The notes: generated by a model not told the origin, from the letters alone. A stretch of 64,000 bases of DNA from Gemmatimonadota bacterium (GCA_965116475.1 OZ220691.1:3296001-3360000); one strand, 5' to 3'. Counted from the first letter of the stretch, positions 38,377 to 47,036 are shown. A program made the numbers and translations.

Positions 38377-41175
38377 TCAGATGGAGAGGTAGTGGCTCAC
38401 CTTGACGATGAAGACGTTCTCCGCCGGCGCCATCCACAGCCCCTCGAGATCCCGGTTGAGATCGAAGTTGCCGAGCAGCACGCTCTCCCGGCGCGCGTGC
38501 TGCCACACGAGGAAGAGTTCGGAACCCGGGCGATATTCCCAGCGGAACACCGCGTTGCCTCGCAGCGAGCGGATGTTGAAATCGCGATCCCGGGTCGAGT
38601 AGTCCAGTTCGCCGTCGCCGTTGAAGTCGAAGTAGCGTACGCCGTCGAAGGCGCACGTCGCTCCGTCCGTGCATCCGGTGACGACGCCGTCGAAGCGGTA
38701 GGCCCGCCCTTCGGCATAGTCCACGAAATCGAACGTCCCGGCGGCCGCGAGTTGCCGGTAGCCCCGGTAGTCGCCCGACGTGAGCAGCGGCTGCGCGTAG
38801 AGCTGCAGGCTGAGATCGGGCGTGAACGACACGTTGAGGCGCGTTTCCATCGAGAACCCGGTCCGCTGGAGATCGCCGAACAGGTACCGGTCGCCGTACG
38901 TCGGCGCGTACGCCAGCGCGGTCGACCGGGTCACGTACTGGGCTCCGTCCCGCCTGTCGTTGTAGTTGGGACTCAGCGACACCCGCCAGTTCGGAAGCGG
39001 ACGGTAGGAGATGTTCACGCCCGTGCTCATGTCGTGACCGCGCCCCTGCGCCGCGACCCGGTACGAGAAACGCGGCGACACGTGGAACGACCGGCTCCGG
39101 TCCGTGTTCGCGTCCACCCGGACATTGAACTCCGCGGGCTCGGTCATGAGCGGGCCGCCGCGGGTCTGCGTATCGGACTGGGATTCCGGCGAGTACGAGA
39201 AGTTGAGGTTGAAGGCCCAGTTGTTGAGGAAGGTGAACCGGCCGCTCATCCACGCGGCGCCCGTGTCGTAGGAGCGGCGCAGGTGGTCCGGCCCCCACTC
39301 CTTCTCGAGCAGCGAATGACGGAAGTTGTGGTAGGTGAAGAGGCTGATGTTGTAGTTGCGGAAAAGGCTGCCCGGTCTGATCTCCCGGTACCCAATGCGA
39401 CCTCCCACGTCGAGCCGTTCACCGGTGGTCAGGAAGCCGAAGTCGTTGACCTCGAAGCCGGGGGTCTGCTGGCCCGCCCAGGTGCCCCACGTCCAGTGTT
39501 CGCCCTCCTTCTCGAGCTGCACCCGCCAGTCGCTCCCGAACATGGAGGTGGCCGTGGAGTCGACGGCCAGGTACGTGGCGTCGGGGCGCTGGAAATAGTG
39601 GGTCGGATTGCGTTGCAGCCGCATGAGCGCATCGCTCGAACCCTGGACCAGGCTGCCCGAGTAGAACCCCCACAGGCGGTAGTCGCGGCCGCGGCGTCCG
39701 CCCCACTGGTGCTCGAAATCGAGGCCGAAACTGAACGCCTCCGAGGGGAGGAAGTCGAACGATCCGTCGCCCGGCAGTTCCCGCTTCAGCCCGGTGCCGA
39801 TGACGCCGACCTTGCTCGCGCCGCCGCGGAAGTCCTGCTGGAGCCTCACGACCGCATGCTCCGCCTGGGGCTCGGCGACGAACCGTCCGAGGGAATCCGC
39901 CTGCGAAAAATACGCCTGCCCCATCTCCTGTCCGGTGACGGCCGCCAGCGCCCCGACGGAGAGACCGCTCTGCGTCCGGCCGGTGAGCTTCGCCGCCCCC
40001 AGGATCGACGTCAGGTGGGGTTCGGCGTGAAAGTCCGCGTCGTAGGGTCCGGATCCCCGCGGTTCCCGCCCGATCCGGCGACTGAAGAAGAGCGCCTTCC
40101 CACCGCCGAAGCGGCCGCCGCGCGAGCCGGCGAAGGTGAAGATCTGCGCGTCGCGCACGAAGAAGGGGCGCTTCTCCGGGAAGAAGGTCTCGAACGCCGT
40201 CAGGTTGATGACCTCCGGGTCTACCTCGACCTGGCCGAAGTCGGGGTAGATCGTCGCATCGAGGCTGAACGCGGAGCCGATCCCCATGCTCATGTCGAGG
40301 CCGCCGCGGGGCTCCATCTCGGTGCCGTCGAACAGCGGGTTCCCCGGCGTCGCGGGCGCCGTGTGATACTGGGACACGGCGAAGGGCCGGACCTCGAACC
40401 TCCGGCTCGACCGCGGGAGCTGCAGCCCGTCGATCGTGCCGAACTGGCTGACCCGCCCCCGGGCCGTGCGCGACTGCAGCGCGAAGTAGTCCGTCTCGTT
40501 CGTCTCGAGCCGCCGGCGCTCGAAGTTGATGCCCCAGGTCTGCATGCCGGGGCGCGCTTCGTAGCGGATCTGGGAGAGCGGGATCCGCATCTCCACCGTC
40601 CACCCCCGGTCGTCGACCTGCACGGCGGAGTCCCAGATCGCGTCCCAGTTCGTGTCTTCCTGGGTATCGCCGAACAGGTACCGGTCCGTCTCCGCCCCCG
40701 CGGCGCTGACCTCGAACTCGTAGCCGGTCAGCCCGTCCCGGTTGGGATCGAGCGAGAGCTTGAAGGAATCGAAGGAACCGCGTTCATCCCGGCGGGTGAG
40801 GCGCGCCCGGATCACACCCGGGTCGCTCTCGTACATGCGGGCGGCGACATATATCGCGCCGTCGTCGAACACGACCCGCACCTCGGTCGGTTCGGAGGGC
40901 TCGGCGCCCTCCAGCGGCACGCCCTGGACGAAGTCGGTGATGATGGGGGCCGGCTGCCACGCCGGGTCGTCGAGCCGGCCGTCGATCGAGAGCGCGCCCT
41001 CTCGGCGCACCGCGTCCACGGCCGCCGGCGCCACGCCGCCCCGGAAGACGGTCGCCGCGGGTCCTTCGGGCGGCGAGAGCCCCTCCTGTTGCCCGTGAAG
41101 CCCCCACCCCGTCCCGCTTATCGCAAGAGCCGCGAGGGCGATCGCCGCGCGGCCCGCTCCATGTCTGAATCTCAT
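38377..41175 (-). CDS. CBM9-like / DUF5916 outer-membrane protein
   Basis: Signal peptide, IDGRLDD, PDFGQVEVD, FPEKRPFF, FFSRRIG, FRWEYRPGS, beta-signal-like C-terminus. Confidence 0.88.
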   Translation of the reverse strand: MRFRHGAGRAAIALAALAISGTGWGLHGQQEGLSPPEGPAATVFRGGVAPAAVDAVRREGALSIDGRLDDPAWQPAPIITDFVQGVPLEGAEPSEPTEVRVVFDDGAIYVAARMYESDPGVIRARLTRRDERGSFDSFKLSLDPNRDGLTGYEFEVSAAGAETDRYLFGDTQEDTNWDAIWDSAVQVDDRGWTVEMRIPLSQIRYEARPGMQTWGINFERRRLETNETDYFALQSRTARGRVSQFGTIDGLQLPRSSRRFEVRPFAVSQYHTAPATPGNPLFDGTEMEPRGGLDMSMGIGSAFSLDATIYPDFGQVEVDPEVINLTAFETFFPEKRPFFVRDAQIFTFAGSRGGRFGGGKALFFSRRIGREPRGSGPYDADFHAEPHLTSILGAAKLTGRTQSGLSVGALAAVTGQEMGQAYFSQADSLGRFVAEPQAEHAVVRLQQDFRGGASKVGVIGTGLKRELPGDGSFDFLPSEAFSFGLDFEHQWGGRRGRDYRLWGFYSGSLVQGSSDALMRLQRNPTHYFQRPDATYLAVDSTATSMFGSDWRVQLEKEGEHWTWGTWAGQQTPGFEVNDFGFLTTGERLDVGGRIGYREIRPGSLFRNYNISLFTYHNFRHSLLEKEWGPDHLRRSYDTGAAWMSGRFTFLNNWAFNLNFSYSPESQSDTQTRGGPLMTEPAEFNVRVDANTDRSRSFHVSPRFSYRVAAQGRGHDMSTGVNISYRPLPNWRVSLSPNYNDRRDGAQYVTRSTALAYAPTYGDRYLFGDLQRTGFSMETRLNVSFTPDLSLQLYAQPLLTSGDYRGYRQLAAAGTFDFVDYAEGRAYRFDGVVTGCTDGATCAFDGVRYFDFNGDGELDYSTRDRDFNIRSLRGNAVFRWEYRPGSELFLVWQHARRESVLLGNFDLNRDLEGLWMAPAENVFIVKVSHYLSI

Positions 41176-41299
41176 ACCAGCCGAAACACGTCCCGCCGTC
41201 CTGTTGTTTAAGCCCGCGCGTCAGCCCGCGCGAAGCTTGCGCGCGCAAAGTTTCCCATCCGCGGCGCGCGCGCTAGTTTTGCTCCGCCGGCGTGGGCCG

Positions 41300-41353
41300 G
41301 ACGTGGTGATTTGAGGCGGATTGCAACCACGTAAAACAATCGCTAAAGAGCCA
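41300..41353 (+). ncRNA. SAM-II (SAM-alpha) riboswitch aptamer
   Basis: CGTGGTGATTTG...TTGCAACCACGTAAAACAATCGCTAAAG matches SAM-II consensus; P1 ACGTGGT/ACCACGT; pseudoknot GATTG/CAATC; directly upstream of metH. Confidence 0.9.
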
Positions 41354-41354
41354 C

Positions 41355-41393
41355 GCCCCGGGCGCGACTCTTTGGCGACCGGGGTCTTTTTTT
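41355..41393 (+). terminator. Intrinsic terminator in the riboswitch expression platform
   Basis: GCCCCGG/CCGGGGT stem extended by CGC/GCG, then 7 T. Confidence 0.8.
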
Positions 41394-41406
41394 CGGGGTG
41401 AACGCC

Positions 41407-44400
41407 GTGTCCGAAGGCCGAAGCAAGCGCGTCGCACAGATTCGGGAGGCGCTCGAACGGCGCATCCTCCTGATGGACGGCGGCTCGGGAACGATGATCC
41501 AGCGGCTGGGCCTCGATGAGGCGGCCTATCGCGCGGGTCCGCTCGCGGATCATCCGCAGCCCCTGTCCGGGAACCACGATGTGCTGTGCCTCACCCGCCC
41601 GCGCGAGATCGCGTCCCTCTACCGCTCCTACCTGGAGGCGGGGGCCGACTTCATCACGACGAACACGTTCAACGCCCAGGCCATCTCCCAGGCGGACTAC
41701 GGCATCTCCGCCGAGGCGGGTAACGCCCACCTCATCCACGACATCAACGCCGCGGCGGCACGGCTCGCCCGGCACGAGGCCGACGAGGTGACGCGGGCGG
41801 ATCCCTCGCGGCCGCGCTTCGTGCTCGGGAGCATGGGGCCGACCAACCGGACGGCCTCTCTGTCGCCGGACGTCGAGAACCCCGCGTTTCGCGCCGTTTC
41901 CTTCGATGAACTCGCGCGCGCGTATCGGCAGCAGGCGGAGGGACTCGTCGAGGGCGGCGCCGACGTGCTGCTCATCGAGACCGTGTTCGACACGCTCAAC
42001 GCGAAGGCGGCGATCTTCGCCATCCTCGAACTCGAGGAGGATCTCGGCGAGCCGCTGCCGGTCGCGGTCTCCGGCACGATCACCGACCTCTCCGGGCGCA
42101 CGCTGTCGGGTCAGACCGTGGAGGCGTTCTGGCTCTCGGTTCAGCATGCGGACCCCCTCTTCGTCGGTCTCAACTGCGCGCTCGGCGCCGAGGAACTCGA
42201 GCCCTACGTGGCGGAACTCTCCGCCGTGGCCGATGTCCCCGTGAGCTGCCACCCCAACGCGGGCCTCCCGAACGAGTTCGGGGGTTACGACGACACGCCC
42301 GCCCACATGTCCGACCTGCTGGGGGACTTCGCGGACCGTAGGCTCCTGAATCTCGTCGGCGGCTGCTGCGGAACGGAGCCCGACCACATCCGGGCCATCG
42401 CGGAGCGCATGGAAGGCGTGCCGCCGCGACAGGTTTCCGCGATCGAGCCGCTGCCCCGGTTCGCGGGCATCGAGCCGCTCGCGATCCGGCCGGACACGCT
42501 GTTCGTGAACATCGGCGAGCGCACGAACGTCACGGGCTCGGCCCGCTTCGCGCGTCTGATCCGGGAGGATGATTTCGACACGGCGGTCGAGGTCGCGCGC
42601 GACCAGGTCGCGAACGGGGCGCAGCTTCTCGACGTGAACATGGACGAAGGCCTCCTCGACTCCGAGGCCGCCATGACCCGTTTCCTGAACCTGATCGCGG
42701 CGGAACCCGACATCGCCCGCGTCCCGACCGTCATCGACTCGTCACGCTGGGAAGTCATCGAGGCGGGGCTGAAGTGTACGCAGGGGAGGGCCGTCGTGAA
42801 CTCGATCTCCCTCAAGGAGGGGGAGGAGGCGTTTCTCGCGCAGGCGGCCCTCATCCGCCGCTACGGCGCCGGCGTCATCGTCATGGCCTTCGACGAGCGG
42901 GGGCAGGCGGACACGGTGGACCGCAAGCTCGAGATCTGCGCCCGCGCCTACCGCCTCCTGCTCGGCGCCGGCTTCCGGCCCGGAGAGATCATCTTCGATC
43001 CCAACGTCTTCGCCGTGGGGACGGGAATCGCGGAACACGACGGGTACGGGGTCGCCTTCATCGAGGCCGTGCGCCGGATCAAGCGCGAACTCCCCGGCGC
43101 GATGACGAGCGGCGGGATCAGCAACATCTCCTTCTCCTATCGGGGTAATGACGCCGTGCGGGAGGCGATGCACACGGCCTTCCTGTACCACGCGATCGCG
43201 GCCGGACTCGACATGGGGATCGTGAACGCGGGGCGGCTGCCGCTCTACGACGACATCGACCCGGAACTGCTGGAAGCGGTGGAGGATGTCCTGCTCGCCC
43301 GCCGGCCCGACGCGACGGAGCGGCTGACGGACCTGGCGGGCCGGATCCGGGACGAGGGGATCGAGACGCGGGTGGACGATGCGTGGCGCTCGGAGGGCGT
43401 CGAGGCGCGGCTCGAGCACGCGCTCGTGGAAGGGATCGTCGAGCACATCGAGGAAGACGCCGAGGAGGCCCGGCTCCTGTACGGCAGGGCGCTCGAGGTC
43501 ATCGAGGGCCCGCTCATGGCCGGCATGAACCGGGTCGGCGATCTGTTCGGGAGCGGGCGCATGTTCCTGCCGCAGGTCGTGAAGTCGGCGCGCGTGATGA
43601 AGCGGGCCGTCGCCTTCCTCGTCCCCCACCTGGAGGCCGAGAAGGCGGAGAAGGCAGAGGGAAACGCGGCGGGAAAGGCCGCGGGGAAGGGGACGATTCT
43701 CCTCGCGACCGTGAAGGGGGATGTCCACGACATCGGGAAGAACATCGTCGGCGTCGTGCTGCAGTGTAACGGCTACGACACCGTGGACCTCGGCGTCATG
43801 GTGCCCCCGGACCGCATCCTCGCGGAGGCCCGGGCCCACGGCGCCGACGCGATCGGGCTCAGCGGCCTGATCACGCCGTCGCTGGACGAGATGGTGCGCG
43901 TGGCGAGCGAGATGGAACGGCAGGCGTTCGAGGTGCCGCTGCTCATCGGGGGCGCGACGACATCGCGCAAGCACACGGCGGTCAAGATCGAGGAACGGTA
44001 CTCGGGGGCGACCGTGCACGTGCTCGATGCCTCGCGCGCGGTCGGGGTCGTGGGGAAGCTCCTCGGCGACGACGGCGGGGCGGACTTCGTGGAGCGGACG
44101 CGCGCCGAGTACCGGCGCGTGCGCGAGGAGTACCGGGGCGGGAGGCGCCCGCTCGCGACGCTGGAGAAGGCGCGGGCGAACCGGCTCGGGATCGACGCGA
44201 CCTTGCCGGTGCCGGCCCCGCGTCGACCCGGCGTGCACGTGTACGATCCGTTCCCGCTGGAAGACCTGGTCGATTACATTGACTGGACGCCCTTCTTCCG
44301 GACCTGGGAGATGAAGGGACGCTTCCCCCAGTTGCTCGATCATCCGGAGCGGGGGAAAGCGGCCCGGTCCCTGTACGACGATGCCCGCGGGCTGCTCGAA

Positions 44401-45195
44401 GAGATCATCCGCGACGGATCTCTGACGGCCCGCGCGATCGCGGGACTGTATCCGGCGAACGCGCGCGGGGACGACATCGTCCTCTTCGCGCCGGGGGCTG
44501 GGGCGCCGGAGGCTGGGGCGCCGGAGGCTGGGGCGTCGGAGGCTGAGCGTCGCGAGTTGCTGCGCGTGCCCCACCTCCGCCAGCAGATGGACCGTTCCTC
44601 GGGCGCGAACGTCAGTCTGGCCGACTTCGTCCTGCCCGAGGCGGCGGGCGCCACCGACTGGAGCGGCGCCTTCGCCGTGACGGCCGGGATCGGCCTGGAA
44701 GCGCTCTGCGCCCGCTTCGAGGCCGCCGTCGACGACTACCGGAGCCTGCTCGCGAAGTCGCTCGCCGACCGGCTGGCGGAGGCCCTGGCCGAGCGCCTGC
44801 ACGAGATCGTCCGCACCGACCTGTGGGGCTATGCGCCCGACGAGGCGCTCGACAACGACGCGCGGATCGCCGAGCGCTACGCCGGGATCCGTCCGGCGCC
44901 CGGCTATCCGGCGTGTCCCGACCACTCGCAGAAGGCGCTCCTCTTCGACCTGCTCGACGTCGAGCGTCGTCTCGGCATCCGCCTCACGGAGAACTACGCC
45001 ATGCATCCCGCCGCGTCGGTGTCCGGCTGGTACTTCGCGCGGCCGGAAGCCCGCTACTTCGGTCTGGGGCGGATCGGACTCGACCAGGTGGAGGACTACG
45101 CCGCGCGCAGCGGAATCTCCCTCGCCGCGGCGGAGCGCCGCCTCTCGCCCAACCTGGGATACGACCCGGATCCGGTGCTGGAGGCGACGGCGTGA
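41407..45195 (+). CDS. metH: Cobalamin-dependent methionine synthase
   Basis: [32 protein letters not shown]12 motif, [17 protein letters not shown] 41407 after GGGGTG (or 41398). Confidence 0.97.
44488..44547 (+). repeat. In-frame 15-bp tandem repeat x4 in metH
   Basis: GCGCCGGAGGCTGGG-like units encoding [20 protein letters not shown]. Confidence 0.9.
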
Positions 45196-47036
45196 GCGCG
45201 CGGCTGCGGGAGTGGATCGAGGGGGACGGCATCCACCTCATCGATGGCGCCATGGGGACGGTGCTGTACGAGAGCGGCGTGTTCGTGAACCAGTGCTACG
45301 ACGAACTGAACCTCACGGAGCCCGACCGGGTGCTGGGCGTCCACGCCGACTATGTGCGGGCGGGGGCGCAACTCATCGAGACCAACACCTTCGGCGCGAA
45401 CCCCGTCAAGCTCGAGCCGTTCGGCCTCGAACCCTCCGTTCACGAGATCAACGTGGCGGCCGCGCGCCTGGCCCGGCAGGCCGCCGGCGGGCGCGCCGAG
45501 GTGCTCGGGGCCATGGGCCCGCTCGGCATCCGCATCGAACCCTGGGGCCCCACGTCGGTGGACGAGGCCGCGGACCTCTTCGGGCGACAGGTCGCCGGGC
45601 TCGCCGAAGGCGGCGTCGACGGCTTCATGCTCGAGACCTTCTCCGATCTCGACGAGCTGCTGCAGGCGGTGCGGGCGGTGCGGAGGGTCGCGGGGGAGGC
45701 GCCGGTCTTCGCGCAGATGACGTTCGGAGACGCGGGCCACACGGAGTACGGGGCCACGATCGAGGCCGCGGCGGCGGCGCTGGAGCGGGCGGGGGCGGAC
45801 GTCATCGGCCTCAACTGCTCGGTCGGCCCGTCCTCCATGCTGTTCGGTGTCGAGCGCATGGTGGCGGCCACGTCGCGGCCGGTGTCCGCGCTGCCCAACG
45901 CGGGGTTGCCGCGCGACATCGGCGACCGGAAGATCTATCTCGCGAGTCCGGAGTACATGGCCCGGTACGCCCGGCGCATGGCGGCGGCGGGCGCCCGCTT
46001 CCTGGGCGGGTGCTGCGGCACGTCGCCCGACCACACGCGCCTGACGGCGAACCTGCTCGGAACCGACGGCCCCGGGCCCGCCCGCGTGTCTGTCTCTGTC
46101 CCGGGCGAGACCGACGGCCGCGCGGCGACCGAGCCGCCGCCGCTGGCGGGCCGCTCGGAGCTCGGGCGGCGCCTCGCGCGCGGCGAGTTCGTCGGCGCGG
46201 TGGAGTTGACGCCGCCGCACGGGTGGGACCCCGGCGAACTGCTGGCGGGGGCCGGCCGCCTCCACGACGCCGGCGTGCACACGGTCCACATCGTCGACGG
46301 CCCCGCGCACCGGAGCCGCATCGCCTCGCTCCCGGCCGCGATCGTCATCGAACGCGAACTCGGCATGGAAGCGGTCCCGCACTACAGCTGTCGCGACCGC
46401 AACATGCTCGGCATGCTGAGCGACCTCCTCGGCGCCGCCGCGGCCGGCCTGCGCAACGTCTTCCTCATCACCGGAGATCCGCCGCGCGGCGGCCCCTACG
46501 ACACCGGCGGCGTGTACGACATCGACAGCATCGGACTCACCAACGTCGTCCAGCAGCTCAACCTCGGTCTCGACCCGGGGGGAAGCTCGATCGGCGCGCC
46601 GACCTCGTTCGTGAAGGGCGTCGCCGCGAATCCCGGCGCCGTCGATCCGGAGGAGGAGATCCGGCGCTTCGCCTGGAAGGCCGAGGCGGGCGCGGATTTC
46701 GCCGTCACGCAGCCCATCTTCGACCCGGAGAAGTTCCTCGCCTTCGCACGCGAGGTCGAGGACTTCGGCGTGCCGCTCCTCGTGGGCCTGTGGCCCCCGC
46801 TGTCACTGGAGAACGCGGAGTTCCTGGCGCACGAGGTGCCCGGCGTCGACGTGCCGCTCGAGGTGCTGGAGCGAATGGCGCGCGCCCGGCCGCGTGGCGC
46901 CGCAGCGGCCGCGCGGGAGGGGGTCGCCGTGGCTCGCGAGGTACTGGAAGCCGTGCGGCCCCGCATCGCGGGTGCCCTGGTCAGCACGCCCGGAAACGAT
47001 GTCGACCGCGCCGCCGCGGTGCTACGCGATCCCTGA
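45192..47036 (+). CDS. yitJ: Bifunctional homocysteine S-methyltransferase / methylenetetrahydrofolate reductase
   Basis: [51 protein letters not shown] overlap with metH. Confidence 0.92.

Follow-up and report, generated by a model that had tools for sequence, protein, structure and literature searches.

The SAM-II aptamer

How does a SAM-II riboswitch (SAM, S-adenosylmethionine) control the genes behind it when the ribosome-binding site lies well downstream of the aptamer and a terminator-like hairpin stands between the two? The question is raised by the leader of a metH-yitJ operon in a stretch of DNA of 64,000 nucleotides (nt) from Gemmatimonadota bacterium (GCA_965116475.1 OZ220691.1:3296001-3360000); the whole stretch is called the window here, and positions are counted from its first letter. 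From a computational analysis of this locus we conclude that the element probably acts as a transcriptional OFF switch of metH-yitJ. We give this reading a probability of roughly 0.85, and we infer both of its central steps, SAM binding and SAM-dependent termination. The parts of the leader are as follows.

41293-41366, + strand: SAM-II aptamer match (Rfam SAM_alpha, RF00521), core at about 41302-41350; from cmscan
41302-41307 and 41326-41331, + strand: P1 hairpin, CGTGGT paired with ACCACG; from the sequence, the Rfam structure line and the fold
41337-41350, + strand: aptamer 3' strand (P2 pseudoknot strand and GCTAAAG core); from the sequence and the fold
41340-41378, + strand: antiterminator hairpin, 41340-41350 paired with 41368-41378, 11 bp with one G-U; from the sequence, the fold and covariation
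41355-41385, + strand: terminator hairpin, lower stem 41355-41361/41379-41385 and upper 3-bp stem 41363-41365/41375-41377; from the sequence, the fold and covariation
41387-41393, + strand: T7 tract of the intrinsic terminator; from the sequence
41394-41399, + strand: probable ribosome-binding site (GGGGT, rich in G); from conservation in the genus and from its location 7-8 nt ahead of the conserved GTG

The identity of the aptamer was examined with Infernal and Rfam 15, the search suggested in the original prediction. SAM_alpha was matched over the full model (1-79) at 44.3 bits (E 1e-6; gathering score 36), which bears out the assignment made from the sequence by eye. It was the sole Rfam family above its cut-off in the window, and a search of the 3.62-Mb genome returned this element as the single SAM_alpha match. 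All of the core letters GAUUUG, UUGCA, AAAcAA and UCGCUAAAG are present, and in the cmscan alignment every strongly conserved letter of the consensus is matched; compared with that consensus, the copy in the window lacks three loop bases and two single bases.

The two helices of the aptamer are also in place. The loop of P1 is 18 nt long, within the approximately 18-23 nt expected of the class, and holds the pseudoknot partner GATTTG...TTGCA. The P1 helix is kept in relatives with altered pairs, for example CGTGGC/GCCACG and GGTGG/CCACC. In the pseudoknot helix P2, GATT (41308-41311) is Watson-Crick complementary to AATC (41338-41341), and these positions include the G-A and U-C positions at which Corbino 2005 tested mutation and rescue. 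In a crude test, P2 had at least five pairs in 46 of the 115 leaders described below, compared with 11 of 115 when their tails were shuffled. The Rfam match ends 41 nt upstream of metH-yitJ, which places it in the 5' leader of a methionine gene. Judged by sequence and predicted structure, the element is a genuine SAM-II riboswitch, and it would be expected to bind SAM.

Immediately 5' of P1 there is a small hairpin of the form CCGG-N6-CCGG (41287-41300), the arms of which are conserved among relatives in the genus while its loops vary.

Terminator and antiterminator

The GC hairpin followed by seven T that had been proposed at 41355-41393 is present in the sequence. The T7 tract at 41387-41393 is the only run of seven or more T on the + strand of the window, which has a GC content of 70.6%. 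The aptamer 3' strand has a second partner downstream: TCGCTAAAGAG (41340-41350) pairs with CTCTTTGGCGA (41368-41378) over 11 bp with T41344-G41374 as the single G-U, exactly the alternative pairing that had been described. Positions 41340-41350 are shared by the aptamer 3' strand and the 5' arm of the antiterminator, and the other arm takes up the terminator's upper 3' half, so that the pairing is, as claimed, exclusive with both the pseudoknot and the terminator. The antiterminator and the terminator cannot coexist because the terminator 5' arm lies in the antiterminator loop and the 3' arm abuts the helix without a spacer; once the antiterminator has formed, the lower terminator stem is barred, since its formation would call for a pseudoknot whose connecting loop has zero length.

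The relative stability of the two structures was then calculated. As hairpins, the antiterminator (-22.8 kcal/mol) is more stable than the terminator (-19.5 kcal/mol), and it is the minimum free energy (MFE) structure both for 41338-41396 and for the leader as a whole. Without constraints, the leader adopted the antiterminator form with an MFE of -39.3 kcal/mol; when 41336-41350 and the P1 loop were blocked as a stand-in for the SAM-bound pseudoknot, the MFE structure was the terminator (-30.2 kcal/mol). The 59 nt from 41338 to 41396 folded with -27.7 kcal/mol, compared with -17.7 +/- 2.8 kcal/mol in shuffled sequences (z -3.5; 0 of 200 as good). In the unconstrained fold, positions 41297-41300, the 3' arm of the small CCGG hairpin, were paired instead with 41379-41382 in the terminator 3' arm.

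These structures suggest the following sequence of events. With SAM bound, the H-type pseudoknot would retain the 3' strand (41337-41350), the nascent RNA would form the GC hairpin 41355-41385, and the polymerase would terminate in the U7 tract (41387-41393) before it reached either metH or its ribosome-binding site. In the absence of SAM, the free 3' strand would pair with 41368-41378, and this 11-bp helix would capture the terminator's upper 3' half and loop out its 5' arm, leading to read-through. The ribosome-binding site lies outside the aptamer, the antiterminator and the terminator, approximately 45 nt past the aptamer 3' strand; this distance had been given correctly. Since the antiterminator is the more stable helix, a blocked leader turns to the terminator, the helices are exclusive and the ribosome-binding site stands outside them, attenuation of transcription by SAM is the best reading of the leader. 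This predicted mechanism is supported by anatomy and energetics, and also by the conservation and covariation presented below.

A simple promoter scan of 40800-41800 found no sigma-70-like site; TTTCCC-17-TAGTTT (41251-41279) resembles a promoter pair by eye only and was not reported by the scan.

We also looked at a sponge metatranscriptome (X1). An 88-nt contig covered 41296-41383, that is, the leader up to the terminator 3' arm, with a k-mer depth of 44.9. Separate metH contigs began at 41511, the longest having a depth of 11.6, so that the leader contig was about four times as deep; none lay over 41384-41510. This pattern suggests a short leader RNA. These are assembled contigs from one study and a related strain, with possible DNA in the library, and neither the ends nor the levels of RNA can be read from them; we did not count them as evidence.

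Conservation and covariation of the leader

To see whether the layout is kept, a set of 118 leaders was assembled, consisting of 58 loci from searches of relatives and of the phylum and 60 further loci; the locus of the unpublished genome G096 had been left out beforehand. After one leader that was too short and two duplicates were dropped, 115 distinct leaders remained. A terminator was scored when a hairpin of -8 kcal/mol or lower with a directly adjoining U-rich tract occurred no more than 75 nt after the aptamer core. Such a hairpin and U-tract followed the aptamer in 83 of the 115 leaders, compared with 179 of 1150 dinucleotide shuffles (16%). Sorted by the downstream gene, they were found in 48/63 leaders of metH, 6/17 of yitJ-like genes and 29/35 of other genes, and the same layout precedes metH in genomes of the genus. 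Among the 64 leaders having both features, the antiterminator partner was inside the terminator hairpin in 56.

Nine metH leaders (L127, L145, L148, L154, L155, L164, L168, L170 and L186) have a hairpin with an interrupted U tract and a GGAG within about 10 nt; these may be weak terminators or may be under translational control instead. Leaders of this form are among the 32 that were scored as having no terminator.

To examine covariation, the 63 metH leaders were aligned with MAFFT (alignment A1). In the terminator stem, 52 cells were changed on both sides, compared with 29.6 +/- 3.6 in shuffles, and the covariation score was 0.195 compared with 0.115; none of 500 shuffles scored as high, and slid controls were all lower. 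The proximal half of the antiterminator was 83.1% paired and nearly invariant. The distal half was counted in gapless columns, with CTAAA and its best-duplex partner as anchors, in 58 of the 63 leaders, because MAFFT had put the distal partner in differing columns for different types of strand. Five positions after the C of CTAAA we counted A-T 31 times, G-C 17 times and G-T three times, with seven unpaired; six positions after it, A-T 24 times and C-G 22 times, with 12 unpaired. Over positions 5-7 the paired fraction was 0.833 with the leaders' own partners and 0.651 +/- 0.027 with permuted partners that underwent identical best-duplex anchoring, and 0 of 2000 permutations were as high, a count that is not to be read as a probability. 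In the window's genus AAAGAG is matched by (C/T)TCTTT; other types of strand and partner among the leaders are AAAACGC/GCGTTTT, AAAAA/TTTTT, AAAACGGC/GCCGTTTT and AAAGCGCC/GGCGCTTT.

Several results weigh against control by a SAM-dependent terminator. SAM binding and termination at this locus are computational predictions. Taken in its entirety, the 117-nt leader shows no exceptional stability (z -0.84), 33 of 200 shuffled sequences having folded equally well. A simple terminator scanner found one site where 0.5 +/- 0.8 were expected, and that site was the smaller sub-hairpin 41370-41384, not the full hairpin 41355-41385. A clear hairpin with a U-tract was missing from 32 of the 115 leaders, including a member of the genus (L023) that has no T tract. 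Covariation of the antiterminator in relatives, proposed at the outset as a check, was found in the distal half and not in the proximal half, where the A1 score of 0.080 compared with 0.073 in shuffles was not significant (39 of 500 as high); the proximal half is almost without covariation because it is built from the conserved strand of the aptamer. In the distal half, the counts omit five of the 63 metH leaders for which no anchor was found, and partners were anchored by best duplex. The covariation there comes from few strand types (AAAGAG, AAAAAG, AAAACGC), and since these are largely clade-specific, few independent compensatory events are represented; kinship among the leaders also inflates the permutation tests. 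Finally, RNAalifold gave no consensus structure for the 63 leaders of A1, probably owing to the two mutually exclusive folds and to gaps in the loops.

Alternative explanations

Among the other explanations, the one that survives best is that the terminator is largely constitutive and mainly yields a short leader RNA, while SAM acts instead, or also, on translation or on RNA stability. Such an arrangement would be akin to the incoherent dual control that has been reported for Sinorhizobium meliloti metA and metZ. In the part of Scheuer 2022 (PMC9373788) drawn on here, a terminator follows SAM-II without a predictable SAM-driven antiterminator, and leader small RNAs (sRNAs) and mRNAs are stabilised in a SAM-dependent manner. 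The window itself has its ribosome-binding site a few bases past the U tract, which would fit an additional effect on translation. However, there is a strong antiterminator here that overlaps the letters of the aptamer and co-varies, and a constitutive terminator would not need one; moreover, the ribosome-binding site at 41394-41399 is outside both helices and the aptamer. We consider this explanation unlikely.

It might also be supposed that SAM controls translation alone, in the manner of the crystallised metX SAM-II, and that the hairpin and the T7 tract are incidental. The 3' end of the metX aptamer sequesters the Shine-Dalgarno sequence, according to the portion of PMC3326309 used here, and the same AAAGAG letters occur in the window. 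In our case, however, the metH start codon is 57 nt past the end of the strand (41350) and is preceded by a separate G-rich site, the T7 tract is unique on its strand of the window, and the frequency of hairpins with U-tracts among the leaders (83 of 115) is far above the 16% of the shuffles, which makes translation-only control very improbable. Chance complementarity in GC-rich DNA beside a decayed aptamer is already disfavoured and is the least credible of all: GC-rich sequence does fold easily and the z of the whole leader is only -0.84, but the Rfam score is above the cut-off, the element is kept in 22/24 genomes of the genus and 107/151 of the phylum, and both helices co-vary.

Genes around the leader

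The transcription attenuation proposed above would act on the following genes on the + strand; the gene on the other side of the leader is listed last.

41407-45195, + strand: metH, cobalamin-dependent methionine synthase; from Pfam, NCBIfam, the list of open reading frames and comparison within the genus
45192-47036, + strand: yitJ-type bifunctional homocysteine S-methyltransferase / methylenetetrahydrofolate reductase; from the sequence, Pfam and NCBIfam
38377-41175, - strand: divergent upstream gene with DUF5916 and CBM9

Together, metH and yitJ carry out the last steps of methionine synthesis. The metH product has five Pfam domains and matches NCBIfam NF007024 with 1888.6 bits (cut-off 1497). 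The longest open reading frame starts at GTG 41398, and the conserved start is GTG 41407, which was taken as the start of metH because some relatives have no earlier GTG. The yitJ-type product has the Pfam domains S-methyl_trans and MTHFR and matches NF006396 with 622 bits (cut-off 453). The TGA stop of metH and the GTG start of yitJ overlap as GTGA (45192-45195), which suggests that translation of the two genes is coupled; the overlap and the protein families agree with the metH-yitJ operon that had been named. As the upstream gene is divergent, the terminator on the + strand is not its own.

Distribution in Gemmatimonadota

We asked in which organisms the arrangement is found. When the N-terminus of MetH was compared by tblastn with named public genomes, the best matches were metagenome-assembled genomes (MAGs) labelled Gemmatimonadetes, Gemmatimonadota or Gemmatimonadales, with identities of 86, 72, 64 ... 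%. Rfam was run on 20 of the 80 named metH loci, eleven of them labelled Gemmatimonad* and nine others; SAM_alpha was above the cut-off just 5' of metH in ten of the eleven and in one of the nine. A cruder regular expression applied to all 80 loci matched the same ten. In a Hymenobacter metH locus SAM-I was found in place of SAM-II. The single case among the nine was a MAG of Candidatus Neomarinimicrobiota (L034:490-564, 40.6 bits, upstream of metH), which is another phylum that is not named in the SAM-II papers examined.

Of 41 genomes related to that of the window, 34 had a SAM_alpha match, which was above the cut-off in 24; the other genomes of the genus accounted for 22/24 and the sister family for 11/16, the latter mostly below the cut-off. 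An even draw from the phylum gave 107 of 151 genomes, 101 above the cut-off, including the unpublished G096 and G134; when these two are removed, the figures are 105 of 149 and 99. The families differed, with matches in 65/71 genomes of f3, 31/31 of f4, 1/16 of f6 and 0/13 of f10, and many genomes of the phylum sample have two to five copies each. The lineage had been called unexpected. This holds in so far as the SAM-II papers examined do not name Gemmatimonadota among their groups; within the phylum the element is ordinary.

A full-text literature search gave no report of SAM-II in Gemmatimonadota; supplements and the Rfam taxonomy listing were outside its scope, so automatic annotation may already record it there.

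In some other Gemmatimonadota, SAM-II with a terminator was seen before genes unusual for the class (L112, L136, L117, L119 and L113). They encode PanB (ketopantoate hydroxymethyltransferase), a GHMP kinase (probably homoserine kinase), a response-regulator receiver protein, a class I/II aminotransferase and a pyridoxal phosphate (PLP)-dependent enzyme.

These counts show that SAM-II is far from being an alpha-proteobacterial speciality. They also make Gemmatimonadota an extensive natural collection of terminator/antiterminator platforms that co-vary, useful for a transcriptional mode of SAM-II that has been very little studied. For the uncultured, sponge-associated lineage of the window, the result is a reliable regulatory annotation for methionine synthesis.

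SAM-I and SAM-II in the same genome

Outside the window, the same genome carries two SAM-I riboswitches (RF00162) back to back at G000:C1:1940786-1941127 (L200:3287-3628), with 77.8 and 73.2 bits compared with a cut-off of 44.4. An aspartate-kinase-like gene and asd lie behind one of them, and a MetX-like gene behind the other. A search of the genome for SAM-IV gave no match, and neither did one for SAM-V, for which the blank is uninformative since the control matched no genome either.

SAM-I occurred in 20 of the 151 genomes sampled from the phylum, mostly in family f6 (12/16), and its distribution is largely complementary to that of SAM-II: families f3 and f4 together have SAM-II in 96/102 genomes and SAM-I in 3/102, while in f6 SAM-II occurs in 1/16. 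In the window's genus, all four sampled genomes have both. Barrick & Breaker 2007 found no species that has SAM-I together with SAM-II, and a literature search for the two in one organism returned nothing relevant. Their presence in one genome contradicts the 2007 generalisation and would permit a direct test of staged control.

A wider picture can be put forward tentatively. SAM-II may be the main SAM sensor in most Gemmatimonadota, working through one phylum-wide platform in which the ligand-contacting 3' strand is also the antiterminator arm, and the window's genus may divide the pathway between SAM-I and SAM-II. If so, the early steps (SAM-I: aspartate kinase-asd and the MetX-like gene) and the late ones (SAM-II: metH-yitJ) would be shut at different SAM thresholds, and the terminated leader might remain as an abundant small RNA. 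Taken jointly, with the staged thresholds and the persisting leader RNA included, this picture is possible but doubtful.

Comparison with known systems

The original prediction treated a SAM-II aptamer wired to a terminator as unusual. This was not borne out, as SAM-II had been tied to terminators by Corbino 2005 (PMC1273637) and Barrick & Breaker 2007, and also in the part of Scheuer 2022 (PMC9373788) cited here; the same OFF logic has been described for SAM-II in Proteobacteria, that part of PMC9373788 being among the sources. The mechanism is not new; it is only for the host phylum, and for how widely the element occurs within it, that documentation is sparse.

The closest likeness is to the SAM-II/metA motif itself (RF00521, PMC1273637), with which the element in the window shares P1, the pseudoknot and the letters GAUUUG, UUGCA and GCUAAAG, as well as the methionine-gene context, a terminator between P2 and the open reading frame, and the OFF logic. 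It differs in its host, Gemmatimonadota rather than Proteobacteria or Bacteroidetes, in the regulated unit, metH-yitJ, and in the missing three loop bases and two single bases.

In the S. meliloti metZ SAM-II riboswitch / RZ sRNA (PMC9373788, in part), the aptamer is likewise followed by a Rho-independent terminator, which is predicted there to form when SAM binds, with the release of a leader RNA approximately 100 nt long. The gene and the phylum are different, and Northern and half-life data are given in that text, whereas the leader in the window was computed only; SAM-dependent stabilisation of RNA was also seen in the S. meliloti system. Compared with the Sargasso Sea metX SAM-II, known from its crystal structure (PMC3326309, in part), the aptamer fold and the letters of the 3' strand are the same. 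In metX, however, the Shine-Dalgarno sequence is within the 3' strand and control is translational, whereas in the window a terminator/antiterminator pair lies between that strand and the ribosome-binding site some 45 nt further on. With the SAM-I (S box) terminator riboswitches of Firmicutes, the predicted switch has in common that SAM withholds the antiterminator strand and so allows the terminator to form, although the aptamer folds are unrelated, that of SAM-I being built on a four-way junction.

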